From the NCBI GenBank assembly GCA_031279205.1, contig JAITIX010000100.1, positions 1-59,143 on the forward strand: DNA of 59,143 nt, written 5' to 3'. Shown piece by piece: positions 275 to 52,223 of this stretch (the first letter of the stretch is position 1; each line of letters begins with the position of its first letter). This stretch comes from Treponema sp. GTDB taxonomy: Bacteria > Spirochaetota > Spirochaetia > Treponematales > Breznakiellaceae. The notes beneath the pieces were generated by a model that was not told where the DNA came from, ran no database searches, and worked only from the letters and a program-made list of their open reading frames with translations. The translations under genes were made by a program, and so were the position numbers.

Positions 275-1750
275 TCATAGAACTGAATCGGCTTTAAGCC
301 GTTCAACTATTTTACGTACCAATAGCTCCACCGTATCATCGCTTATCCCCGTATTACGAGGAGGAGCGGGAATCCCCTGCGGCCTTATATCTTCCAGTTC
401 CTTTATACCATAGGCGATCCGGCGGATATTAATGAGGTGCAGGGGGCTGATATTATCGGAACTCGCGTTTCCACCCACCGCCCCGCAGCCGAGGGTAAGG
501 GACGGAACCAGGGTGCTTGTCGCGCCGATACCCGCAAGGGCTGCAGGAGAATTGACAATTAACCGCGATACGGGTTTCTTGAGGCCGAATTCCCGGATAA
601 CCTTTTCATCCCTGGAATGGATGCTCATCGTATGCCCGGCGCCTTCGGCCTTTAGAATTTCGATACACCGTTCACAGGCCCTCTCCCAGTTGTCCTCAAC
701 GTAAAAACCCAAGACCGGCATCAGTTTTTCTTTCGAATAGGGGTATTTAGGACCTACCCTGGTTTCTTCGCCCAGCAATACCCGGGTTCCTTTGGGAATA
801 CCGATCCCCGCGGCTTTTGCGATAAATTCCGCGGACCGTCCCACAAGCCGGGCATTCATCGTACCGCCGGGCCCCATGAGTATTTTTTCCACCCTTTCGG
901 AATCCCCCGGAGGGAGAAAATATCCGCCCTGTTTTTGTATTTCTTTCATTACGTCATTACGGATACACTGCTCCGTAATGATTGATTGTTCGGATGCACA
1001 GATCGTACCATTATCAAATGTCTTTGAATCAAAGATCCGTTTTACCGCTAAGGGAATATCGGCGCTCCGCTCAATAAAGGACGGACCGTTGCCGGGACCG
1101 ACCCCTATCGCGGGATTGCCCGAACTATAAGCCGCCTGCACCATCGCGTTTCCGCCTGTGGCAAGGATAAGGGCGATGTTTTTATGTCGCATCAAGGCAT
1201 CAGTCGCCTCTTTCGTCGGAGTGGGAAGGACGCTGACCAGATCCGGGGAAGCGCCCGACCGCTCAAGCGCGGCACGGATACAATGTACGGTTGTGCTTAT
1301 CGCGTTTTTCGCGCCAGGATGGGGTGAAAACACAATAGCGCATCCCGCTTTAAGGGCGATAAGGGACTTAAAAATCGTGGTGGAGGTCGGATTTGTGGAT
1401 GGGATAAGACCCGCCACAACACCAACCGGTACGCCTACCTCAACGAGCCCCCCCGCCTTGTTTTCATTGATAATACCTACGGTTTTGATATTCTTGATAT
1501 ACTCATACACATTTTTGGATGCAAAAAGATTTTTTAATATCTTATCCTCCCATTTGCCAAATCCGGTTTCCTCATTGGCCAATTTTGCAAGAGGTTCCGC
1601 TTCCGCCGCCACCGCTTCGGCAACCGCCGCTACTACCCGGTCAACGGCGGCTTGATCGTATTCTTTGTATACATTTTGCGCCTTTACCGCAAGACTCACC
1701 AGATCCCGAGCCTCTTGCACGGAAATAAGATCAATATCATGCAATTCCAT
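275..1750 (-). CDS. eutE: CoA-acylating acetaldehyde dehydrogenase (EutE/PduP family)
   Basis: About 491 aa counted from ATG 1750, which has a GGGGAG RBS (the track ORF starts at the upstream TTG 1768). It has an aldehyde-dehydrogenase fold throughout and sits between shell-protein genes in a eut locus. Confidence 0.85.
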   Translation of the reverse strand: MELHDIDLISVQEARDLVSLAVKAQNVYKEYDQAAVDRVVAAVAEAVAAEAEPLAKLANEETGFGKWEDKILKNLFASKNVYEYIKNIKTVGIINENKAGGLVEVGVPVGVVAGLIPSTNPTSTTIFKSLIALKAGCAIVFSPHPGAKNAISTTVHCIRAALERSGASPDLVSVLPTPTKEATDALMRHKNIALILATGGNAMVQAAYSSGNPAIGVGPGNGPSFIERSADIPLAVKRIFDSKTFDNGTICASEQSIITEQCIRNDVMKEIQKQGGYFLPPGDSERVEKILMGPGGTMNARLVGRSAEFIAKAAGIGIPKGTRVLLGEETRVGPKYPYSKEKLMPVLGFYVEDNWERACERCIEILKAEGAGHTMSIHSRDEKVIREFGLKKPVSRLIVNSPAALAGIGATSTLVPSLTLGCGAVGGNASSDNISPLHLINIRRIAYGIKELEDIRPQGIPAPPRNTGISDDTVELLVRKIVERLKADSVL

Positions 1751-1786
1751 TACTATTCTCCCCAACAAGGCTAATCAACATAAAGT

Positions 1787-2446
1787 TCAACCCTTTGGTT
1801 TTGGGTTTCGCTTCCGCGGCTTATTCTCTGGCGAACTGCTGCCGCTTTTTTTCTTCGGCAGGGGAATCTCCTGTTCGGGCATGGGGGTTTCATCGGGAAA
1901 AAGCATTTTCCGTTCCCCCTGCCCTTCTTCTCCGCCGTTTTTATCAACGGTCCCGTTTTCCATTGAGGCCGAACCAACCGCCTCAGCCGCAGCAGGCTCC
2001 GGCATCGAAGTCTCGGTCTGAATGGGGGCTTTCGCCGGAACAGGGCGCTCCGTTTGAACGACGGGATCTGCCGGAGTTGACGGCTTAACCGCCGTATCTC
2101 CGGCAGATCCCGGCTTCATCGGAACGGAGGGCTTTCGCCGCGGCAAAAGCTCTCTGCCATTTGTTTGATCCATAATGAGGGGCCACACAGCTTCCGCCAG
2201 ACAAGGAATAAGCAGAGTCTGCCCAACCGCTCCCATACGGTCAATAGTTGCCTTTGCGGCATCAAGGGCAGCGCGCAACGCTCCCACATCACCCACCAGC
2301 GTTACCGTATTCAAACCTCCACCAACAAAGTAGGTCATTTTGAGCGTAACCGCCGCGGCTTTTATAGCGCTGTCAACTGCTTCAATAAGAGGAACGCGAC
2401 CCGCGGTTTCAATAATACCGAGCGCATGGTTTGCACCTGCTTTCAA
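1787..2446 (-). CDS. BMC-domain shell protein with a roughly 125-aa Pro/Glu/Lys-rich C-terminal tail (in the EutK-like position)
   Basis: The N-terminal ~90 aa (KAGANHALGIIETAGRVPLIEAVDSAIKAAAVTLKMTYFVGGGLNTVTLVGDVGALRAALDAAKATI) are a BMC domain. The rest is low-complexity and ends in the basic KKKSGSSSPENKPRKRNPKPKG. The start is TTG at 2446 with GGGGG 8 nt upstream. Confidence 0.7.
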   Translation of the reverse strand: MKAGANHALGIIETAGRVPLIEAVDSAIKAAAVTLKMTYFVGGGLNTVTLVGDVGALRAALDAAKATIDRMGAVGQTLLIPCLAEAVWPLIMDQTNGRELLPRRKPSVPMKPGSAGDTAVKPSTPADPVVQTERPVPAKAPIQTETSMPEPAAAEAVGSASMENGTVDKNGGEEGQGERKMLFPDETPMPEQEIPLPKKKSGSSSPENKPRKRNPKPKG

Positions 2447-2475: not shown

Positions 2476-3132
2476 CTAAAACGAGAGAGGATTTTCAGCG
2501 ACGAATTTTACCGCCTCCCCAAAGGCGTCACAGGCAGCTTTACATGCCGATTGGCTGCCTGTAAGCAATCCGCCGCCAAAGTTTGTTTCCGATGGAGGAC
2601 CATAAAACGCAGCGAGTTTCACGTCTGCGGCTTTTAACGCCGCATCCAGGGCATACATCGCCTCCAAGGGCGGGGCGATAAGATAGGACAAGGCAGCCCC
2701 TTCTTCCACTCCCGCTATCTTCGAGAGATAACTCCCGGTACGGGAAATACAATGAGCGTAATAAGGGATCGTGTTGTCATCGTTAGCCGATATAAACCAC
2801 GCTTCCTCAGTAACAAACTGGCAAATTACATTCAGGCCACTCCGCACTTCCGCAGGATTCGGCCCGGCGATAATACCAAGAATTTCACCGGCCAGTTTTG
2901 TATTGGCGTTTGCGGAACCGCCGTAAAAGGATCGCGCATAGACGACTTCTACATCGGCCTTTTTGGTCGCTTCATCAAGCGCCGTGTAGGTTACATCGTC
3001 GATGTCCGCCGTAACAAGCCCCAAACTTTTTTGTCCGGGCTTTAGTTTATAGCTTTCTATCAAGTCCGCACTTATATTCGGAATGATTTTTACCGCCAGT
3101 ATTGACGCTTTTAAGGGATCGTTTTTAGCCAT
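2476..3132 (-). CDS. eutL: EutL, tandem-BMC-domain (BMC-T) shell protein
   Basis: 218 aa, the typical EutL length and sequence pattern (MAKNDPLKASILAVKIIPNISADL...GLVTADIDDVTYTALDEATK...). It lies directly downstream of eutC as in canonical eut operons. Confidence 0.85.
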   Translation of the reverse strand: MAKNDPLKASILAVKIIPNISADLIESYKLKPGQKSLGLVTADIDDVTYTALDEATKKADVEVVYARSFYGGSANANTKLAGEILGIIAGPNPAEVRSGLNVICQFVTEEAWFISANDDNTIPYYAHCISRTGSYLSKIAGVEEGAALSYLIAPPLEAMYALDAALKAADVKLAAFYGPPSETNFGGGLLTGSQSACKAACDAFGEAVKFVAENPLSF

Positions 3133-3153: not shown

Positions 3154-4044
3154 TTAGAGTTTAAGATCAAGACCGCTTGCCTTATGATCAAGCATTTTCT
3201 TTATAATATCCGCAATATAACCGCCCGCTTCAACCGCCGGGGTCCCGCCTTTATGAATGTTGGAAACCACGGTCCGCCGCGCTTCGGGCATATTCATCGT
3301 CGCCTTGTACGCCATATACGCGGACATGCTTTCCGCCGTGATAAGTCCCGGACGCTCTCCGATAAGCGTAACGATTACTTCGGCGCCGGCGGCTTCCGAT
3401 ATCGCATCTTCAGCGCCAACACGCCCATACTGTACAAAAAACGGAGATGCTGGTTTTATATTGTAACGCTGCAAACCGTCACAGATAGCCTTAAAGGTAT
3501 CAATCGCGTTTGTCGTTACTGCAGTAGTTGAAAGCCCGTCGGCAATATAAATGACCACCCGGCTGTTCCCGCCAACATGATTTTTTATTTTTTGCAGTTC
3601 TTCGGCCTCAAACAACCGGCCCAAATCGGGACGAGTAAGATAGGTGTCTTTACTATCGCACCGGGTCTTAAAACGGGGCAAATTGTTTTGTTTGATCCAG
3701 TCATCCGATACATCGGTAAAAACAGCATCCATGGCTGCTGCGTGATCCGCCCGGAAACGCAGCAGGGTTTCCGTCAGGTACCGGGGGCCGGCTCGCCAGA
3801 CCCCGATACGGGCCGGCGTGGATTGCTTTAAGGTCTTCAAGGCATCAAGGTTATGCGGATTAGGCACATTGATAACACTTCTCAGATCAACGGCGGCCAG
3901 ATCAGGCAATACCCCGTCCAGATTCACCCCTACCGAACCGGCTGACCCGGAATGGTCGGAGTTGGCTAAGGCTTGAGCACCCCCCCCGCCCATTTCCATT
4001 AAAATCGACTCCACGGCTTTGCGCAATTCTTGTTCTGTAACCAT
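3154..4044 (-). CDS. eutC: Ethanolamine ammonia-lyase small subunit EutC
   Basis: 296 aa. The N-terminal amphipathic helix (MVTEQELRKAVESILMEMGG) resembles a BMC encapsulation peptide. The C-terminal core is EutC-like and the gene follows eutB. Confidence 0.85.
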   Translation of the reverse strand: MVTEQELRKAVESILMEMGGGGAQALANSDHSGSAGSVGVNLDGVLPDLAAVDLRSVINVPNPHNLDALKTLKQSTPARIGVWRAGPRYLTETLLRFRADHAAAMDAVFTDVSDDWIKQNNLPRFKTRCDSKDTYLTRPDLGRLFEAEELQKIKNHVGGNSRVVIYIADGLSTTAVTTNAIDTFKAICDGLQRYNIKPASPFFVQYGRVGAEDAISEAAGAEVIVTLIGERPGLITAESMSAYMAYKATMNMPEARRTVVSNIHKGGTPAVEAGGYIADIIKKMLDHKASGLDLKL

Positions 4045-4113: not shown

Positions 4114-5478
4114 TCAATAAAACATAGAAACATCTCCCGCTTTTTCCGTCAGACGGCCATTCTGATCCATCAGATCATGTTTGACCATCCATGCGAAAAA
4201 TTCCGGAGCCGGTTTTAACCCCAACAACTCACGCAGGGTAGCGTCGTCATGATAACTGGTATCCTGATAAGCCAGCATAACATCATCGCCTACCGGTACG
4301 CCCATAAAATAATTGGCCCCCGCCATCGTTAACAACATGGTGGCCATCTCCTGATCATCCTGATTGATCTTGGTATGGTTGGTGTAGCAAGGAGCCATCC
4401 CCATAGGTATCCCCAATAGTTTTCCCATGAAATGATCCTCCAGGCTGGCACGGATGATCTGCCGGCCATCGTAGAGGGTTTCCGGTCCGATAAAGCCCGA
4501 CACATTGTTGAGCATAAAAGGTCTAAATATCCGGGCATAACCGTAACACCGCGCTTCCAGCGTCATAAGGTCCACCCCGCGGTCCGCATTAATTGATTGC
4601 TCTGACCCCTGACCGGTCTCAAAGTACAAAAGATTGGGCCCCGGCGCCTGCCCTTTTTTGTGGATCATATCGTAGGCTTCATGGAGCAAGTTTGTGGATA
4701 CTCCAAAGGCCAGATTTGCCTCCTCGGTTCCGGCGATACTTTGAAAGAAGGCGCAACAGGGAGCGCCATTTTCTACGGCGGCCATTTGGGTGGTAATATG
4801 GGACAGGACGCAGTTCTGAGTCGGCAGTCCCCATTTTTGCATAAAATCCCAGGTAGCCTGCAATATCGTCTTGGTGTTATCCTCCGTATCTTCTACCGGA
4901 TTAACCCCCAAAACCGCATCGCCGCTGCCGTAGGAAACGCCTTCGGCCAAGGACGCCAGAATCCCCTCTATGTTGTCGCTGGGGTGATTCGGCTGATTAC
5001 GGAAAGACAGGGTATCCGGCAAACCGATGGTGGTGGCGCAAGTAGCGGTTATCTTGATTTTGGAAGCGGCATAGACCAAATCCATAGCCGTCATCAATTT
5101 GGCCGCAGCCGCAGCAACCTCAGCCTGAATACCCCGGCTCAATCTGAGGATGTCTTCGCTGGAAGTCTCATGCTTCAAAATCCATTCCCGCAGTTCACCG
5201 ATGGTCCAGTTTTTGATTCTCTCATAAATAGAAATGTTAAGGTCCTCCAGAAGAACACGAGAAACTTCATCGGTCTCAGGCGGCAGCAAGGGGTTTTCGT
5301 AGAAGTCCGCCAGGGTCAACCGGGACAAAACCAGCTTGGCCGCGGTACGTTCGCTGACCGTTTCGGCGGCCCGGCCCAGAAGGACATCACCGGACTTTTC
5401 GTCATTGGCCTTTGCCATAACATCGGTGAGACTTTTGAAAGAATAAACTTGACCGCCTAAAATAGTCTTTAATACCAT
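4114..5478 (-). CDS. eutB: Ethanolamine ammonia-lyase large subunit, divergent paralog (copy 2, adjacent to eutC)
   Basis: 454 aa, collinear with EutB over its full length, with the YFETGQGSE, GFIGPE, EDHFMGK and CYTNH motifs. By manual count about half of the first 100 residues match the neighbouring copy. Confidence 0.85.
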   Translation of the reverse strand: MVLKTILGGQVYSFKSLTDVMAKANDEKSGDVLLGRAAETVSERTAAKLVLSRLTLADFYENPLLPPETDEVSRVLLEDLNISIYERIKNWTIGELREWILKHETSSEDILRLSRGIQAEVAAAAAKLMTAMDLVYAASKIKITATCATTIGLPDTLSFRNQPNHPSDNIEGILASLAEGVSYGSGDAVLGVNPVEDTEDNTKTILQATWDFMQKWGLPTQNCVLSHITTQMAAVENGAPCCAFFQSIAGTEEANLAFGVSTNLLHEAYDMIHKKGQAPGPNLLYFETGQGSEQSINADRGVDLMTLEARCYGYARIFRPFMLNNVSGFIGPETLYDGRQIIRASLEDHFMGKLLGIPMGMAPCYTNHTKINQDDQEMATMLLTMAGANYFMGVPVGDDVMLAYQDTSYHDDATLRELLGLKPAPEFFAWMVKHDLMDQNGRLTEKAGDVSMFY

Positions 5479-5496
5479 ATTTCCTCCGCAACCAGG

Positions 5497-6858
5497 TCAA
5501 ACAAATACGGACATATCACCGGCGCGGGAGGTTAAGCGGCCGTTTTCCCACAAACCCATCTTTTCAAGCCATGCGGCAAATTCGGGAATTGGAGAAAGCC
5601 CCAGCAACTGCCGTAACGAAGGGGCGTCATGGTAACTGGTACACTGGTAGTTGAGCATAACATCGTCCCCGTGAGGGATGCCCATAAAATAATTGCATCC
5701 CGCGGCGCTCAACAGTATTGCCAGATTTTCGACATCGTTTTGATCGGCTTTTGCATGGTTTGTATAACAAGCATCGCAGCCCATCGAAATACCGGTCAGT
5801 TTACCCATAAAATGATCTTCAAGCCCGGCGCGGATTATCTGCTTGGAGTCATAAAGGTATTCGGGACCGATAAACCCGACAACCGTATTGACCAGGAAAG
5901 GGCTGTACCGCTTCGCAAAACCGTAACACCGCGCCTCCATTACCACCTGATCGGCGCCAAAGTGAGCGTCCGATGAAAGCTCGGAACCCTGACCGGTCTC
6001 AAAATACATAACATTCGGACCGGTAGCGGTACCCGCATGAAGCATCAGGTCCCGAGCCTCGTCCATAAGGGCCATCGTAATACCGAAGGCTTCATTTCCC
6101 TTCTGGCTCCCCGCGATGCTCTGGAAGCAAAGGTCTGCGGGAGCCCCCTTGCGTATCGCTTCCATTTGGGCGGTCACATGAGCAAGAACACAGATCTGGG
6201 TCGGTATGCCAAGGCGGTGTTTTATTTCATTAAAACGCTCAAGGACCGCTTTGGCGTTGTCGGCGGTACCTTCAACAGGGTTAAGCCCGATAACCGCGTC
6301 TCCGCATCCGTAGGAGAGTCCTTCGTACACGGAAGCGGTAATCCCATCAAGATTATCTGTCGGATCGTTTGGCTGTAAACGGATAGCGAGGGTCCCTTTT
6401 TTACCTATAGTTGTGTTGCAATGGGCGGTAACCCGTGCTTTGCTTGCCGCGTAAATCAGATCCATATTGGTCATGAGCTTCGCCGCCCCAGCAATGACTT
6501 CTGCAGTAAGCCCACGGCTTACCCGCCGGATCGACTCATTGGTTGCGGCATCTGAAAGAAGCCATTCTCGAAATTCCGCCATGCTCCAATTCCGAATCTC
6601 GGCATAAATTGATTCATTTATCGCATCCTGGATGATCCGGGTAACCTCGTCATCCTCATAGGGAACCACAGGATTTTCTCGCAGATCCGAAATTTTTAAA
6701 TTGGCCAAGACCTGTTTTGCAGCAACCCGTTCCGCCATGTTTGCCGCAGCCACACCTGCCAGATGATCCCCGGAGCGATCTTCATTCGCCTTTGCAAGGA
6801 CATCTTTGACGTCTTTAAACTGATACACCGTATCAAACAATTTGGTTTTCAGTATCAC
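5497..6858 (-). CDS. eutB: Ethanolamine ammonia-lyase large subunit (copy 1, closer to canonical EutB)
   Basis: 453 aa. MILKTKLFDTVYQFKDVKDVLAKANEDRSGDHLAGVAAA... closely follows the enterobacterial EutB sequence as I recall it. The start is GTG at 6858 with an AAGGGGG RBS. Confidence 0.9.
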   Translation of the reverse strand: MILKTKLFDTVYQFKDVKDVLAKANEDRSGDHLAGVAAANMAERVAAKQVLANLKISDLRENPVVPYEDDEVTRIIQDAINESIYAEIRNWSMAEFREWLLSDAATNESIRRVSRGLTAEVIAGAAKLMTNMDLIYAASKARVTAHCNTTIGKKGTLAIRLQPNDPTDNLDGITASVYEGLSYGCGDAVIGLNPVEGTADNAKAVLERFNEIKHRLGIPTQICVLAHVTAQMEAIRKGAPADLCFQSIAGSQKGNEAFGITMALMDEARDLMLHAGTATGPNVMYFETGQGSELSSDAHFGADQVVMEARCYGFAKRYSPFLVNTVVGFIGPEYLYDSKQIIRAGLEDHFMGKLTGISMGCDACYTNHAKADQNDVENLAILLSAAGCNYFMGIPHGDDVMLNYQCTSYHDAPSLRQLLGLSPIPEFAAWLEKMGLWENGRLTSRAGDMSVFV

Positions 6859-6986
6859 GGAATCTACCCCCTTCGCACTTAGAGTTGTAGTATATAAACT
6901 TACCCCGTGATCTCATAAACATCGATGACGGGTTCATAAGCCTATAACAATCACCTCTATCCGCGTAGAGTTTATCCATGATGTTA

Positions 6987-7074
6987 TTACAAAATAGTTT
7001 TCTGACTTAAAGGATTTCTCCCTTTACAGTGGCGGGACCGTTCAGGTTGTTCGCCTGATTGCCATATTTTGTAA
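6987..7074 (-). promoter_or_regulatory. Cobalamin (B12) riboswitch-like aptamer in the eutB leader
   Basis: Minus-strand RNA: UUACAAAAUAUGGCAAUCAGGCGAACAACCUGAACGGUCCCGCCACUGUAAAGGGAGAAAUCCUUUAAGUCAGAAAACUAUUUUGUAA. It has a CAGG-N7-CCUG hairpin, the conserved GGUCCCGCCACUGUAA core, a small hairpin and a B12-box-like AAGUCAG. A perfect 10-bp helix closes the element. Confidence 0.65.
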
Positions 7075-7100
7075 CCCTTATCTTAGTATATTCTCCTACT

Positions 7101-7150
7101 CAAGTCCACTATTAATAATCAACAACAAGTCCACTATTAATAATCAACAA
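7101..7150. repeat. Perfect tandem direct repeat, 2 x 25 bp (CAAGTCCACTATTAATAATCAACAA), in the divergent eut control region
   Basis: 7101-7125 and 7126-7150 are identical when read directly from the sequence. The repeat lies between the minus-strand eutB unit and the plus-strand eutS unit. Confidence 0.95.
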
Positions 7151-7361
7151 TAAATGATAACACGGGAAATACCAGTTGTCAAGGGAAATTTTTTGTTGAT
7201 TCCCCTCTGTGATTTTACGTGAGGCGGGGCATTGACTCCTCATTACTTTGGGATATACACTTACTTATCAGGGTTTTTTCACCGTTTTTTCAAAATTCGA
7301 TAAAAAAAGCTCTAACCACACAATACTATTGAGCGCCCCTTGATAAACAAAGGAGTTGGTA

Positions 7362-7706
7362 ATGACCGGGGATGAAAAGCCGCGGACTATTCAGGAATAT
7401 GTACCGGGTAAGCAGGTAACGATGGCGCATCTTATTGCCAATCCCCTCGAAGAATTATGTAAACAGATTGGCGTCGAAAATAAAGGCGCCATCGGTATTA
7501 TGACGATAACGCCCGGAGAGGGAACCATTATCGCCGCTGACGCGGCAAGTAAGATGGGGGATATCCAGCTTGAATTCGTTGATCGTTTTACCGGATGCCT
7601 GGTTTTTTCCGGTAATGTCGCCGCTGTTGAAAGCGCCCTTAAAGGGGCTGTGGGAGCCCTTGAGCGTATCCTCGGTTTTACGCCGGCTTCCATTACAAAA
7701 TCATAA
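7362..7706 (+). CDS. eutS: EutS/PduU-type (circularly permuted) BMC shell protein
   Basis: RTIQEYVPGKQVTMAHLIANP...GIMTITPGEGTIIAADAASKMGDIQLEFVDRFTGCLVFSGNVAAVESAL matches the EutS/PduU pattern. ATG 7362 is preceded by AGGAG (the track ORF starts at TTG 7356). Confidence 0.8.
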   Translation: MTGDEKPRTIQEYVPGKQVTMAHLIANPLEELCKQIGVENKGAIGIMTITPGEGTIIAADAASKMGDIQLEFVDRFTGCLVFSGNVAAVESALKGAVGALERILGFTPASITKS

Positions 7707-7729
7707 CCGTGTGTATAAAGAGTTAATAC

Positions 7730-8203
7730 ATGGAAATAGTAGGAAAAGAAAAACCGATAATGCTGGTGGGACCAACCGGCGCGGGGAAAAGTACCCTTAT
7801 AAAGGTCCTGAACCGTCTGGACGGCGAAATAAAGAAAACCGAAAGCATTACCTATTTACCCTACGCGATTGATACGCCGGGAGAGATGATTCATATCCCC
7901 TTTTTGTACAACGCCCTGATATTAAATTCCGCCCGAGCTTCAATGGTACTTTTTCTCATCAGCGCGAAACGATACCCGCGGCTTCCCGCAAAGCTCGCTC
8001 TTGCCCTGAAGGTTCCCGCCATCGGGATTGTCTCGCAGATTGACGGGGCGGAAGAGGCGGGGATCCGACGGGCGAAATCGGCCCTTACCGTTGCGGGATT
8101 AAAAATAATTTTTAATGTATCTTCGGTAACCGGCGAGGGGATTGACGCGTTGCGGGAATTTATTGTATCCGCCGGCATATCCCTGGGGTATAGCAAAAAC
8201 TAA
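7730..8203 (+). CDS. eutP: EutP/PduV-family small GTPase
   Basis: 157 aa with the P-loop MLVGPTGAGKSTL, then DTPGE. Size and context are typical of EutP. Confidence 0.8.
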   Translation: MEIVGKEKPIMLVGPTGAGKSTLIKVLNRLDGEIKKTESITYLPYAIDTPGEMIHIPFLYNALILNSARASMVLFLISAKRYPRLPAKLALALKVPAIGIVSQIDGAEEAGIRRAKSALTVAGLKIIFNVSSVTGEGIDALREFIVSAGISLGYSKN

Positions 8204-8216
8204 AAGGAGTGAAACC

Positions 8217-9242
8217 ATGCATTTCCAGGCGCCGGCGTTTCAAGAAACGCCGTTTCTTGAAACGTTGATAGAGCGGGCCAAGGCGGACAAACGGCATATC
8301 GTATTGCCCGAAGGCAATGACGAACGTATTCTGTGGGCCGCTGAAACGATACTGAAAAAGGATTTTGCCGAACTTACGATATTCGGGAATCCCGAGGAGA
8401 TGCGGGAACGGGCGGAACGGCTTGGCCTGCAGACTTTTCAAAAAGCCAATCTGCTTGACTATACACGAAGTCCCCTCTTTACCGCCTATGCCCATGTATT
8501 CTATGAACAGCGTAAGGCCAAGGGCGTCACCGAGGAAGGGGCCCTTGCCCAAATGAGGGACAGAAACTATTTCGGCGTGATGATGGTGCAAGATAAAAAG
8601 GCCCACGGGATGGTATCCGGAGCGGATGGCACAACCGCCGATACGATTCGTCCGGCTCTCTCGATCATCAAAACCCGTCCCGGATCCTCAATCGCAAGTT
8701 CGGTATTTCTAATGTGCCTGCCCGATGGCCGTGTGTGGGTTTTTGGGGATTGTGCGGTCAATCCAAACCCTACCCCCGCGCAGTTGGCGGAAATCGCTAT
8801 CCTTTCCGCCCAAACCGCAAGGGCCTTCGGTATTGAACCCCGGGTTGCTATGTTGAGCTATTCAAGCGGGACTTCCGGCGCCGGTCCGGATGTCGATATG
8901 GTCCGGGAAGCGACAAAGATTGCTCTTGAAGCCATAGAACGCCTGTCCCTCGGCCTTCCGCTGGACGGTCCGATACAGTTTGATGCCGCGGTGGATCCGA
9001 AAACCGCAGCTTCCAAAATGCCCAACTCGCCGGTTGAGGGCAAGGCGACGGTGATGATCTTCCCGAATCTGAACGCGGGCAATATCTGTTATAAAGCGGT
9101 ACAGCGAGCGGCTAATGCCCTTGCCATAGGCCCTGTCGTCCAGGGGCTCAACGCTCCGGTAAACGATCTTTCCCGAGGCGCCAGTGTGGAAGATATTGTC
9201 AATACCGTTGCGATAACGGCGATTCAGGCGCAGGCCGGTTGA
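8217..9242 (+). CDS. pta: Phosphate acetyltransferase (Pta/EutD, PTA_PTB family)
   Basis: 341 aa counted from ATG 8217, which has an AAGGAG RBS (the track ORF begins upstream and overlaps eutP). HIVLPEGNDERILWAAE and the C-terminal NICYK...GPVVQGL are typical of Pta. Confidence 0.85.
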   Translation: MHFQAPAFQETPFLETLIERAKADKRHIVLPEGNDERILWAAETILKKDFAELTIFGNPEEMRERAERLGLQTFQKANLLDYTRSPLFTAYAHVFYEQRKAKGVTEEGALAQMRDRNYFGVMMVQDKKAHGMVSGADGTTADTIRPALSIIKTRPGSSIASSVFLMCLPDGRVWVFGDCAVNPNPTPAQLAEIAILSAQTARAFGIEPRVAMLSYSSGTSGAGPDVDMVREATKIALEAIERLSLGLPLDGPIQFDAAVDPKTAASKMPNSPVEGKATVMIFPNLNAGNICYKAVQRAANALAIGPVVQGLNAPVNDLSRGASVEDIVNTVAITAIQAQAG

Positions 9243-48584: not shown

Positions 48585-50336
48585 TTATTTCAGGTAGAGC
48601 GGGCGCTCCACATACTTCGTGTGCAGTAGCTCGTGCGCTTTGTGTCCATTCGGCTCGCCAAGGAATTCCTTGTATACCTGCTGGATAAAGGGGTTCTGGT
48701 GCGAACAGCGGTACTGGGACTGGGCATCGTCGGTGTAGAGACCAGCGGCGCGTTTGGCGCGGATTTCGTCAACGCAGCCGTAGGGTTGACCGCCGCCAGC
48801 GACACAACCGCCGCGGCAGGCCATCACCTCGACAAAGTGGTAGGGCGGCTCTTTGCCTGCCTTACGCGCGTCGATGATTTCATCCAGCACTGTAGCGATA
48901 TTGCCCATCTGATGGGCAACGGCTATGCGGAGTTTCTTGCCGTTGATGTCGATCTCAGTGGACTTGACGCCCTCAAGACCGCGCACTGGGTTCAGGTTCA
49001 CGTCGCCGAGTTCCTGTTTGGTGATGAGGTAGTAGGCGCTGCGAACAGCCGCTTCCATCACGCCGCCAGTTGCACCGAAGATTGTGCCTGCGCCGGTATA
49101 GGGACCGAGTGGGTTGTCGGCTTCTTCGTCTGGCAGGTCGAGTATCTGAATGCCGGCCTGCTTGATCATGCGGGCAAGTTCACGGGTTGTGATAGAAATG
49201 TCCACATCGTAGCCATAGCCTGCGCTCTTCATGTCGTCGTTGCGCCGGGTTTCCCACTTTTTGGCGGTGCAGGGCATCACTGACACTGAGTAGACCTTCG
49301 CCGGGTCTACGCCTGCTTTCTGCGCCCAATACGCCTTGATCATCGCGCCCATTATCTGCTGGGGCGACTTTGCAGTGGAGAAGTAGGGGATCATGTCTGT
49401 GTAATACTTCTCCATATAGTCAACCCACGCGGGGCAGCAACTGGTGATGAGCGGCAGATTGCCGCCTTCGCTGAGTCGTTTTACCAGTTCCGTGCCTTCT
49501 TCTATTATAGTGAGGTCTGCGGAGAAGTTGGTGTCAAACACGGTTTTGAAACCGAGGCGACGGAGCGCGGCGTAGATTTTCTTGGTAACAAGCGTCCCAG
49601 GTTCCAGACCGAATTCTTCGGCAAGTGCGACGCGCACTGCGGGCGCGATTTGCACCACTGTATGCGTGTCAGGTTTTTGGAGTGCGTTCCAGACGTTGAC
49701 GGTGTCGTCGCGCTCGTAGATGGCACCGACTGGACAATGAGCGGCGCATTGACCGCACTTGATGCAGGGGCTGTCGCCGAATGCGATGTCTGCGGCGCTG
49801 GCTATGCGTCCGCTGAAGCCGCGTCCGAGGAATTCGAGCGCCCACACGTTTTGTACGGATTGACAGACCTTTACGCAGCGACCGCAACGCACGCACTTTT
49901 CAGGGTTAAGCACGATGGCGGGGTTAGTGTCATCAACGGGAAGCTGGTTAAGCAGTTTAGTGAAGGGGCTTTCGCGGATGCCAAACTCTTCAGCCAGGGT
50001 TTGCAGTTCGCAACTGCCATTGCGGGGACACTGGAGGCAGTCGTTTGGGTGGTTTGACAGGATGAGTTCAACCACGGTGCGACGAACTGCGATGAGTTCA
50101 GGGTCGTGGGTAACGATATCCATGTTTTCCGCGACAGCGGTGGTGCAGGCTCGTGCCATGCGCGGGCTGCCTGGGCCAGCGGTTCTGACGATGCAGAGTC
50201 CACAGGAACCCCATGGTGGAAGGTCAGGGTTGTAGCAGAGGGTCGGAATCTTGATGTTGACCTTCTCCGCTGCCTCAAGGATCGAGGTTCCTTCCTCGAC
50301 TTGAAGCGCTATGCCGTTTATCTTGCAATTTACCAT
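48585..50336 (-). CDS. hydA: [FeFe] hydrogenase catalytic subunit (HydA/HndD type)
   Basis: It has an N-terminal 2Fe-2S ferredoxin-like domain and Fe-S cluster Cys motifs. The H-cluster signatures TSCCPAW, MPCTAKK and EVMACRGGCVAGGGQP are present. Confidence 0.9.
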   Translation of the reverse strand: MVNCKINGIALQVEEGTSILEAAEKVNIKIPTLCYNPDLPPWGSCGLCIVRTAGPGSPRMARACTTAVAENMDIVTHDPELIAVRRTVVELILSNHPNDCLQCPRNGSCELQTLAEEFGIRESPFTKLLNQLPVDDTNPAIVLNPEKCVRCGRCVKVCQSVQNVWALEFLGRGFSGRIASAADIAFGDSPCIKCGQCAAHCPVGAIYERDDTVNVWNALQKPDTHTVVQIAPAVRVALAEEFGLEPGTLVTKKIYAALRRLGFKTVFDTNFSADLTIIEEGTELVKRLSEGGNLPLITSCCPAWVDYMEKYYTDMIPYFSTAKSPQQIMGAMIKAYWAQKAGVDPAKVYSVSVMPCTAKKWETRRNDDMKSAGYGYDVDISITTRELARMIKQAGIQILDLPDEEADNPLGPYTGAGTIFGATGGVMEAAVRSAYYLITKQELGDVNLNPVRGLEGVKSTEIDINGKKLRIAVAHQMGNIATVLDEIIDARKAGKEPPYHFVEVMACRGGCVAGGGQPYGCVDEIRAKRAAGLYTDDAQSQYRCSHQNPFIQQVYKEFLGEPNGHKAHELLHTKYVERPLYLK

Positions 50337-50348
50337 AGTCTTTTCTCC

Positions 50349-52223
50349 TTACGCCTTGGCAATGGCGCCGAATTTACAATTTCTGAAACATTCGCCGCAC
50401 TTGATACACTTGCTCTGTTCAATGACGTGGAATTTCCTCACCTCGCCAGAGATACAGTTGACAGGGCAGCGTTTGGCGCAGAGCGTACAGCCCTTACACT
50501 TGTCCGCGACGATCTTGTAACGCAGGAGCTTCTTACACTTGCCTGCGCGACATTTTTTGTCGTGGATATGCTCAAGGTACTCGTCTCTGAAGTTCTTCAC
50601 GGTGGACAAGGTGGGATTTGCCGCTGTGGAACCGAGCGCGCAGAGCGACGCTTTGGTCATGGCTTTGCCGATGGCTTCCAGTTTTTCGAGGTCAGCCTCT
50701 TCGCCTTTCCCTGTGGTGATCTTGTCGAGGATCGTCAGTATCTGGCTGGTACCAATGCGGCAGGGAGAACACTTGCCGCAGGACTCGTCGACGCAGAAGT
50801 CCATGTAGAAGCGTGCCACGTCTACCACGCAGTCGTCTTCGTCCATAACGATCATGCCGCCTGATCCCATCATGGAACCCATGAGGGCGAGTTGCTTGAA
50901 GTCAATGGGTGTATCCAGCGCCTCGTCGGTCAGGATACCGCCAGAGGGTCCGCCGGTCTGGACACCTTTGAACTTTTTGCCATTTTTGATGCCGCCGCCA
51001 ATGTCAAAGACGATTTCGCGCAGGGTTGTACCCATTGGTACCTCGACGAGGCCTGAGTTTTGCACCTTGCCGGTGAGCGCGAAAACCTTTGTGCCTTTGG
51101 AATCCTCCGTTCCCATTGAGGAGAACCACGCGCCGCCTTTGGTGAGTATCGCGGGGATGTTCGCGTAGGTTTCGACGTTGTTGATGACGGTGGGCTTGCT
51201 CCAGAGGCCTGAAAAGGCCGGGAATGGTGGCTTGGGTGTGGGCATACCGCGCTGGCCTTCGACTGAGCGCATGAGCGCTGTTTCCTCGCCGCAGACAAAC
51301 GCGCCCGCGCCAAGGCGAATCTCAATGTCAAAGTCAAAGCCTGAACCCAGGATGTCCTTACCGAGCAGGCCGTATTCTTTTGCCTGCTTCAGAGCGATTT
51401 CAAGGCGATGTACTGCCAGCGGGTATTCCGCACGGATATACACAAAGCCTTGGTTAGCGCCGATGGTTTTGCCGCAGATGGTCATGGCCTCGATGACGGA
51501 GTGAGGATCGCCCTCAATGGTGGAGCGGTCCATGTACGCGCCCGGATCGCCTTCGTCGGCGTTACAGACCACGTACTTCACGTCGTTTTTGACTTTGCGG
51601 GTTGTATCCCACTTCATCCATGTGGGGAAACCTGCACCGCCGCGTCCGCGAAGGCCTGATGCTTTCAGCTCATTGACGATGTACTCTGGCTGCCATTCAA
51701 AGAGCGCCTTTTCAAGGCTCTCGTAGCCACCGTCGTGAGCAATGTACTCATGGATGTCCTCTGGATTAAGCACACCGCAGTTCCGCAGAACCACGCGCAC
51801 TTGTTTTTGGTAAAAGCCGATAGGCGGCAGGTCTGCGAGCGCAGAGCCGCTGGTCGTGGCGGTGTTTCCCTGGGCGTCTTTATACATAAGGCGGGTGAGT
51901 TCTTTTCCGCCAATAATCTGTTCGGCGATGATGTCCTTAGCGTCTTCAGGTTTTACATCGACGTAAAACGAGTTTTCTGGCAGGACTTTGACGATGGGTC
52001 CCTTCTCGCAGAACCCGAAGCAGCCGGTTTTGATGACCTGTACCTTGTCGGCCACACCTTGTTTTTTTGCTTCTTCGATAAGCTCCTCGTAAATCTCGAC
52101 GCCTTTGTTTGACTGACAGGCGGTTCCGCCGCATGTCATAATGTAATGGCGACCGGGTTTTCTGAAAACAGCGCTTTGAGCTTCACGCAGTTGATGCAGT
52201 CCCTCTCTGGTCAGTTTTGCCAT
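50349..52223 (-). CDS. hydB: NuoF-like NAD(P)H/FMN flavoprotein subunit of a multimeric [FeFe] hydrogenase (HydB/HndC)
   Basis: 624 aa with an N-terminal thioredoxin-like 2Fe-2S module, a GRGGAGFPT NuoF core, and C-terminal CKGCTLCAKRCP and CIKCGECFRNC ferredoxin motifs. Confidence 0.9.
   Translation of the reverse strand: MAKLTREGLHQLREAQSAVFRKPGRHYIMTCGGTACQSNKGVEIYEELIEEAKKQGVADKVQVIKTGCFGFCEKGPIVKVLPENSFYVDVKPEDAKDIIAEQIIGGKELTRLMYKDAQGNTATTSGSALADLPPIGFYQKQVRVVLRNCGVLNPEDIHEYIAHDGGYESLEKALFEWQPEYIVNELKASGLRGRGGAGFPTWMKWDTTRKVKNDVKYVVCNADEGDPGAYMDRSTIEGDPHSVIEAMTICGKTIGANQGFVYIRAEYPLAVHRLEIALKQAKEYGLLGKDILGSGFDFDIEIRLGAGAFVCGEETALMRSVEGQRGMPTPKPPFPAFSGLWSKPTVINNVETYANIPAILTKGGAWFSSMGTEDSKGTKVFALTGKVQNSGLVEVPMGTTLREIVFDIGGGIKNGKKFKGVQTGGPSGGILTDEALDTPIDFKQLALMGSMMGSGGMIVMDEDDCVVDVARFYMDFCVDESCGKCSPCRIGTSQILTILDKITTGKGEEADLEKLEAIGKAMTKASLCALGSTAANPTLSTVKNFRDEYLEHIHDKKCRAGKCKKLLRYKIVADKCKGCTLCAKRCPVNCISGEVRKFHVIEQSKCIKCGECFRNCKFGAIAKA

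Follow-up and report, generated by a model that had tools for sequence, protein, structure and literature searches.

Positions 1 to 59,143 of the contig JAITIX010000100.1 of a Treponema sp. (GenBank assembly GCA_031279205.1), analyzed here and referred to as the window, carry an ethanolamine utilization (eut) locus with two consecutive genes for the large subunit of ethanolamine ammonia-lyase (EAL), eutB copy 1 and eutB copy 2, followed by a single small-subunit gene, eutC. A textbook example of radical B12 catalysis, EAL is also the signature enzyme of a bacterial microcompartment (BMC) that has been studied widely, and all structural and mechanistic work on it that we know of concerns enzymes with aspartate at residue 362. 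Copy 1 belongs to this canonical class. Copy 2, designated EutB' below, has alanine at this position and, judged by its sequence, belongs to a large and old clade of EutB proteins rather than being a local oddity. On balance, we consider it probable that EutB' represents a second ancient EutB class and functions as the catalytic large subunit of an adenosylcobalamin-dependent amino-alcohol lyase, sharing EutC with EutB and differing from EutB in the binding or activation of the amine.

Two EutB paralogs from opposite sides of the family tree

Both eutB genes encode full-length proteins, in agreement between open reading frames and family profiles: copy 1 and copy 2 score 721 and 636 bits, respectively, with PF06751 (cut-off 25) and 686 and 607 bits with NF011649 (cut-off 554). 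Their alignment spans 453 residues with a single gap and shows 57% identity; among the first 100 residues 51 are identical, which bears out the manual count of about one-half made in a previous sequence-only reading of this locus. An AlphaFold2 (AF2) model of copy 2 (pLDDT 90.3) matches the E. coli EutB chain 3ABO_A with a TM-score of 0.97 and an rmsd of 1.6 Å, and a phmmer comparison with 2QEZ gives E = 8e-172. By all sequence and fold measures applied, copy 2 is an EutB protein, and Pfam and NCBIfam would label it as such. The pLDDT of the model falls below 50 only at residues 365-367 (YTN) and 398-404 (GDDVMLA), two active-site loops that, in the modeled structure, would face the cofactor and EutC.

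A neighbor-joining tree of 182 EutB domains splits perfectly into 75 Asp362 and 107 Ala362 sequences (this and the other trees were built on corrected p-distances, without bootstrap support). E. coli EutB and copy 1 fall within the Asp clade and copy 2 within the Ala clade, so that the deepest split in the family separates the two copies and the duplication is not recent, as the sequence-only reading had proposed. The best 120 database relatives of copy 2, which extend down to 64% identity and represent many phyla, almost all contain the motif G[IL]PMGMAPCYTNH. A degenerate DNA pattern for PMGMAPCYT matched the genomes of at least 120 species, and the matches listed include Pseudomonas, Hyphomicrobium, Methylocystis, Xanthobacter, Sorangium, Planctomycetes, Synergistetes, and Firmicutes.

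Selection on the locus was assessed against its closest relative (L205), which shows 89% identity, the same divergent eutS-eutP-pta genes, and the same riboswitch. Of the genes compared, eutC had the highest dN/dS ratio (0.105), followed by copy 2 (0.065), eutL (0.055), and copy 1 (0.039); both eutB copies are under strong purifying selection. The possibility that copy 2 is a recent duplicate or a decaying pseudogene was considered and is excluded by its identity to copy 1, its position in the tree, and its dN/dS. A related Eut BMC locus in the Desulfobacterota single-cell genome M10 from cockroach hindgut is reported to show high in situ transcription (PMC10266427), and the EutB' protein of M10 is 80% identical to copy 2.

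Residue 362 and the amine pocket

The segment around residue 362 reads GISMGCDACYTNH in copy 1 and GIPMGMAPCYTNH in copy 2. Alignment with 3ABO_A assigns the Asp of the MGCD motif to residue 362, which upholds both the earlier numbering and the Cys-Asp to Met-Ala replacement in copy 2. In structural work on E. coli EutB, the carboxylate of Asp362 is reported to form a hydrogen bond with the substrate amine, and the same work is said to have assigned the further catalytic and substrate-hydroxyl ligand roles. Copy 1 retains this aspartate, as do all 75 canonical sequences, whereas alanine occupies the position in copy 2 and in 107 of 107 Ala-clade sequences. Throughout the Ala clade, Thr325 is also replaced by Asn. 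Further positions separate the two clades with almost no overlap, and the full set of twelve comprises L322M, T325N, V327S/T, Y334T, G345N/S, C/V361M, D362A, A363P, I376Q, L379A, C388A, and N403A/S.

Outside this set, neither clade shows any variation at R160, Q162, N193, H227, F245, Q246, S247, Y285, E287, F329, M401, L402, and Y404; Arg160, Gln162, Asn193, and Glu287 are thus constant throughout the 182 sequences, the two copies included. The catalytic roles of E287 and R160 in EAL have been described (PMC4155860). The residues predicted to form the radical core and to bind the substrate hydroxyl are kept in copy 2, and among the presumed first-shell substrate ligands Asp362 is the only one that differs. 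In the AF2 model of copy 2, Asn325 ends the strand 322-326 and Ala362 lies just past the strand 359-361, which places both residues at the C-terminal ends of successive barrel strands. From the covariation of the two positions and their location in the predicted secondary structure, we infer that Asn325 may take over the amine-ligand role of Asp362.

Genomic settings of the Ala362 clade

Four kinds of context were found for genes of the Ala362 clade: B'-C pairs without canonical EutB, fusions with EutC, loci with two full pairs, and tandem B-B'-C arrays. Neighborhoods based on open reading frames included antisense artefacts in high-GC genomes, and called genes were preferred where available. 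Two complete BMC loci contain EutB' as the only large subunit. The first, L204, has the order eutS-P-B'-C-L-E-M-M-...-N-Q-T-A and lacks canonical EutB; the second, L010, encodes EutV/EutW-like regulators, EutL, EutJ, EutH, and an iron-containing alcohol dehydrogenase (Fe-ADH). Non-BMC B'-C pairs occur in L018, together with EutV/EutW-like regulators, and in Butyricicoccus (L015).

Fused EutB'-EutC proteins of approximately 740 aa are represented by 55 sequences, and their gene neighbors often include EutA, amino-acid permeases, or aldehyde dehydrogenases. All 55 have the Ala362 signature and cluster on the same side of the tree as copy 2, an association between fusion and Ala class that is biased by the retrieval of the fused sample by motif. 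The fused branch is more divergent, with a mean distance of 0.86 to unfused members of the clade. Two full pairs share one locus in Thermovenabulum (B-C ... B'-C'-BMC-EutH), Anaerolineales (EutH-B'-C-EutA-B-C), and Virgibacillus, and a fused Ala-class EutB'C gene is followed by canonical eutB (and eutC) in Pseudomonas sp. LD120 (L104 4580-7999) and Stutzerimonas kirkiae (L160 3008-7556).

The order B-B'-C with one EutC was found in 13 loci from three phyla, and double-eutB loci, the recurrence of which the sequence-only reading had left as a point to check, do recur. In addition to the window and L205, these loci belong to Petrocella atlantisensis, Caloramator mitchellensis, Geosporobacter subterraneus, one member each of Lachnospiraceae and Clostridiaceae, an HGW-Firmicutes metagenome-assembled genome (MAG), three Synergistetes MAGs, and two Adiutrix-like deltaproteobacteria. 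Pairwise distances among the B proteins correlate with those among the B' proteins over 11 tandem loci (r = 0.86, Mantel p ~2e-4), which indicates that the two genes are inherited or transferred together as a unit. EutC directly follows B' in 13 of the 13 tandem loci and also in the B'-only loci. In the deltaproteobacterial lineage, the copy that some members lack is canonical EutB and not B'.

A single EutC and its N-terminal peptide

A tblastn search of the window identified one EutC only, as had been read from the open reading frames next to copy 2. The eutC gene starts 69 nt downstream of copy 2, and the N-terminus of its product consists of the amphipathic helix MVTEQELRKAVESILMEM followed by a GGGG linker. 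Judging from MVTEQELRKAVESILMEMGGGG, the helix and linker resemble encapsulation peptides, whereas the two EutB copies are not extended at their N-termini. The EutC proteins of the tandem loci form a group of their own, the nearest outsiders of which are the EutCs of canonical-only Clostridial loci. Deltaproteobacterial genomes with B'-C only encode a close relative of the window EutC, which suggests that EutC proteins of this type can serve as partners of B'. The EutC tree was also considered as a guide to the native partner and was set aside as weak, the mean distances being 0.64 to canonical-associated and 0.67 to B'-only-associated EutCs.

Proposed function of EutB' and alternative explanations

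In the proposed scheme, EutB and EutB' would be co-transcribed from one riboswitch-controlled promoter, and each would assemble with the single common EutC. The N-terminal peptide of EutC would then bring both enzymes into one Eut microcompartment, where the aldehyde product would pass to EutE and Pta. The radical machinery would be unchanged, and the altered part would be the corner of the pocket that accommodates the leaving amine: the Asp362 carboxylate is lost, the invariant Asn325 gained, and the packing of β7, β8, and α8 remodeled. Most likely, the two isoenzymes would differ in amine binding or activation, through substrate range or kinetics, and not in being catalytic. EutB' may act on ethanolamine, as EutB does, or on an analogue substituted at N or C. 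The B'-only loci resemble ordinary ethanolamine systems in their content of EutH, EutA, EutV/EutW-like regulators, and EutE, which points to ethanolamine; the repeated retention of both classes side by side, in four gene orders, and the loss of charge where the amine binds suggest a different or broader substrate.

Several points weigh against this interpretation. We found no member of the Ala362 clade with a measured activity in the literature. If E. coli EAL depends on Asp362 as strongly as is reported, an enzyme that has lost it needs a compensating residue, and Asn325 is proposed for this role from covariation and secondary structure, not from coordinates. The use of one EutC by both copies is likewise deduced, and separate rather than mixed hexamers are putative. 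Two isoenzymes for one reaction within one operon would be unusual, which argues for differing substrates. Finally, since part of the Ala-clade sample was retrieved by motif, the invariance of the Met-Ala-Pro motif is circular in that part, although motif-blind samples support it independently.

An alternative, which we regard as unlikely, is that EutB'-EutC acts on N-methylated ethanolamines (choline, N,N-dimethylethanolamine, and N-methylethanolamine), releasing tri-, di-, or monomethylamine and acetaldehyde in the same microcompartment. The loss of Asp362 and the more hydrophobic surroundings provided by Met361 and Pro363 would make room for N-methyl groups, and acetaldehyde would still be the product, consistent with EutE and Pta serving both enzymes. 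The EutB' eut locus of five Adiutrix-like deltaproteobacteria adjoins a genuine pyrrolysine-type mttB gene, recognized by an in-frame stop and a match to Rfam PYLIS_3 (62-71 bits) (Table 1). Genes for a HAD phosphatase, an APH-family kinase, and an EamA transporter accompany mttB divergently from the eut locus, as does a second, non-pyrrolysine MttB paralogue in L204. In Butyricicoccus, a non-pyrrolysine MttB-family gene lies just upstream of the stand-alone eutB'-eutC pair on the same strand, and fused members of the clade occur in methylotroph genera including Hyphomicrobium, Methylocystis, and Methylotenera. The link to trimethylamine methyltransferase genes in these relatives is suggestive only. 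MttB neighbors are confined to the one deltaproteobacterial lineage and Butyricicoccus, and no MttB, APH, or HAD gene was found in the window. The fused-type neighborhoods contain EutA, amino-acid permeases, and aldehyde dehydrogenases and no methylamine genes, the B'-only loci have, like typical ethanolamine systems, EutH and regulators of the EutV/EutW type, and we found no literature support for N-methylated ethanolamines as substrates.

We also considered, and rejected, the idea that the Ala clade as a whole is linked to methylamine metabolism. Clustering of the neighbors in 201 loci, and Pfam searches of the Hyphomicrobium, Methylocystis, Desulfospira, and Acetobacter neighborhoods, gave EutA, permeases, and aldehyde dehydrogenases only. 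The Butyricicoccus sp. region (L015 3186-8236) encodes on one strand, outside a BMC locus, the MttB-family protein, a 261-aa protein without a family match, and the eutB'-eutC pair.

Quite unlikely, in our assessment, is a function of EutB' in the conversion of a C-substituted or other amino alcohol or diol (1-amino-2-propanol, 2-amino-1-propanol, or a vicinal diol) that would broaden the intake of the microcompartment. The partial remodeling of the amine and side pocket around a conserved catalytic core would fit such a change, and the repeated retention of both classes in one locus, across phyla and in four gene orders, suggests non-redundant functions. On the other hand, residues V326, F329, M392, and L402, which we take to contact the methyl group of aminopropanols, are unchanged in EutB', and no neighboring gene points to a C-substituted substrate.

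Very improbable is the suggestion of the sequence-only reading that copy 2 might be a non-catalytic or regulatory partner, which would act in mixed hexamers with EutB: one EutC for two large subunits and the co-evolution of B and B' in the tandem loci would suit it, whereas complete loci exist in which the clade is present and canonical EutB is not, EutB' also occurs fused to EutC, the remaining catalytic residues are invariant, EutB' is under strong purifying selection, and in the deltaproteobacterial lineage it is EutB that may be absent, so that a merely regulatory subunit is excluded with good confidence.

Organization and regulation of the eut locus

The eutB operon on the minus strand comprises the riboswitch, eutB copy 1, copy 2, eutC, eutL, a BMC-H gene, and eutE, after which the left edge of the window cuts the locus; eutS-eutP-pta are transcribed divergently (Table 1). 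EutS, EutL, BMC-H, EutE (TIGR02518), and Pta surround the signature enzyme, the gene set of an Eut (EUT2-type) BMC. The BMC-H protein has a tail of approximately 135 aa, the terminal stretch of which is strongly basic (KKKSGSSSPENKPRKRNPKPKG). The real start of pta is probably downstream of position 8203. By tblastn, none of EutA, EutH, EutT, EutQ, EutN, and EutJ was found in the window, past the left edge of which the locus continues, and EutV/EutW were not seen within it either; EutA, EutN, EutT, and EutH/EutQ are all present in the relatives L002, L204, and L206. The notion that copy 1 occupies the place of eutA was not borne out by the relatives, in which eutA either precedes the B-B' pair (Petrocella, Caloramator) or, in L002 and L206, is found at the far end of the locus.

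Table 1. Features of the eut locus in the window and pyrrolysine-type mttB regions in related loci
Feature	Sequence	Position	Strand	Evidence or remarks
Promoter-like site: TTGACA, 17-nt spacer, TG-extended TATCAT	Window	7154..7182	-	11 of 12 positions match; consensus match only
Perfect tandem direct repeat, 25 nt x 2, in leader	Window	7101..7150	-	TRF, 100% match
Adenosylcobalamin (AdoCbl) riboswitch aptamer	Window	6945..7089	-	Rfam RF01482, 57.5 bits (gathering score 50)
Predicted hairpin between aptamer and Shine-Dalgarno	Window	6893..6946	-	Minimum free energy fold, z = -1.6, not significant alone
eutB copy 1, canonical (Asp362) EAL large subunit	Window	5497..6858	-	453 aa, GTG start
eutB' copy 2, Ala362/Asn325-clade EAL-type large subunit	Window	4114..5478	-	454 aa, ATG start
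eutC, small subunit	Window	3154..4044	-	296 aa; NF003971, 295 bits
eutL (BMC-T shell protein)	Window	2476..3132	-	NF011934, 370 bits; TIGR04502, 362 bits
BMC-H shell protein, EutM/EutK-like, long Pro/Glu/Lys-rich C-terminal tail	Window	1787..2446	-	Profile matches
eutE-type acylating acetaldehyde dehydrogenase	Window	275..1768	-	TIGR02518, 701 bits (cut-off 620)
eutS (BMC shell protein), divergent	Window	7356..7706	+	NF012012, 132 bits (cut-off 123)
eutP/pduV-family GTPase	Window	7730..8203	+	Profile matches
pta (phosphotransacetylase)	Window	8142..9242	+	Pfam match from residue 38
Pyrrolysine-type mttB region	L002	4101-5615	Divergent from eut	PYLIS_3
Pyrrolysine-type mttB region	L204	~6240-8900	Divergent from eut	PYLIS_3
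Pyrrolysine-type mttB region	L206	4206-5723	Divergent from eut	PYLIS_3
Pyrrolysine-type mttB region	L153	4958-6475	Divergent from eut	PYLIS_3
Pyrrolysine-type mttB region	L155	2574-4088	Divergent from eut	PYLIS_3

The AdoCbl riboswitch is located in cis, 87 nt before the eutB start codon. Its ortholog in L205 (6146-6293) scores 50.2 bits, at or above the gathering score, and eight other related eut loci gave no match at that score. A B12-OFF switch before a B12-dependent enzyme would be paradoxical, and the element may thus be an ON switch or part of a circuit of the small RNA (sRNA) type. The predicted hairpin downstream of the aptamer, which is followed by a U-rich stretch, is tentatively proposed as a candidate expression platform; the corresponding region of L205 has a different sequence in which pairing is still possible. 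Between the promoter-like site, the -35 box of which is kept in L205, and the riboswitch lies the 25-nt tandem repeat (unit on the plus strand, CAAGTCCACTATTAATAATCAACAA), which is absent from the orthologous leader in L205. Copy 2 follows the stop codon of copy 1 after 18 nt and has its own GGAGGA Shine-Dalgarno sequence 5 nt before its ATG.

Elsewhere in the window, a multimeric [FeFe] hydrogenase of the electron-bifurcating type is represented by HydA- and HydB-like genes at 48585-52223 on the minus strand. The remaining genes have housekeeping functions and include SerRS, SMC, DapB, aspartokinase, NagA/NagB, cardiolipin synthase, and IF-2.

Implications and comparison with known systems

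The EutB family is well known, whereas the Ala362 class and the tandem architecture with a shared EutC are, as far as we can tell, undescribed; we found no paper on two eutB genes per locus, on the Ala362 class, or on a characterized EutB paralogue. A second class of EutB exists under the same annotation name in at least 120 species from many phyla, repeatedly beside the canonical enzyme in one operon. If the EutB' class deaminates ethanolamine, the accepted role of Asp362 in amine migration might need revision; otherwise, a new substrate might be added for the Eut-type organelles of gut and sediment anaerobes. Were N-methylated ethanolamines the substrates, EutB' would be the cobalamin counterpart of the glycyl-radical enzyme CutC, and the tandem operon would equip a single organelle for ethanolamine as well as for choline-type head groups. 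In the insect-gut deltaproteobacteria, the neighboring pyrrolysine-type MttB would then receive the trimethylamine, while the acetaldehyde would go to the Eut microcompartment. The cultured tandem carriers P. atlantisensis, C. mitchellensis, and G. subterraneus make the question directly testable.

The window shares eutS, eutP, eutB, eutC, eutL, and eutM/K with the EUT2-type loci of Firmicutes (Enterococcus, Listeria, and Clostridium), as well as a type-I EutE (TIGR02518), a phosphotransacetylase, and an AdoCbl riboswitch. It differs from them in having two large-subunit genes for one small-subunit gene, in the placement of the riboswitch in cis before eutB and not in a trans-acting sRNA, in showing no EutV/EutW, and in the divergent orientation of eutS-eutP-pta. 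Pelobacter carbinolicus has a duplicated fused enzyme, EutBC1 and EutBC2, for which separate ethanolamine and choline lyase activities were speculated by the authors (PMC3543383). Compared with such fusions, copy 2 is unfused and located in a BMC locus, and our comparison of the classes covers the 55 sampled fusions. A likeness to the choline trimethylamine-lyase CutC and its glycyl radical enzyme microcompartment (GRM) would exist only if the substrates were N-methylated, in the conversion of a 2-hydroxyethyl-amine to acetaldehyde and an amine; the fold and cofactor of EutB' are unrelated to those of CutC.

The solved EutB structures, from E. coli and Listeria, are all of the Asp class. Relative to the E. 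coli, Salmonella, and Listeria enzymes (3ABO and 2QEZ), copy 2 has the same length and TIM-barrel fold at 50-56% identity, keeps Arg160, Gln162, Asn193, Glu287, and the hydrophobic pocket residues, and is likewise encoded next to EutC in a BMC locus. In contrast, it carries Ala in place of Asp362 together with T325N, V327S, C361M, A363P, and Y334T, and the further changes G345S, I376Q, L379A, C388A, and N403A, and it stands across the deepest split of the family tree from these enzymes.

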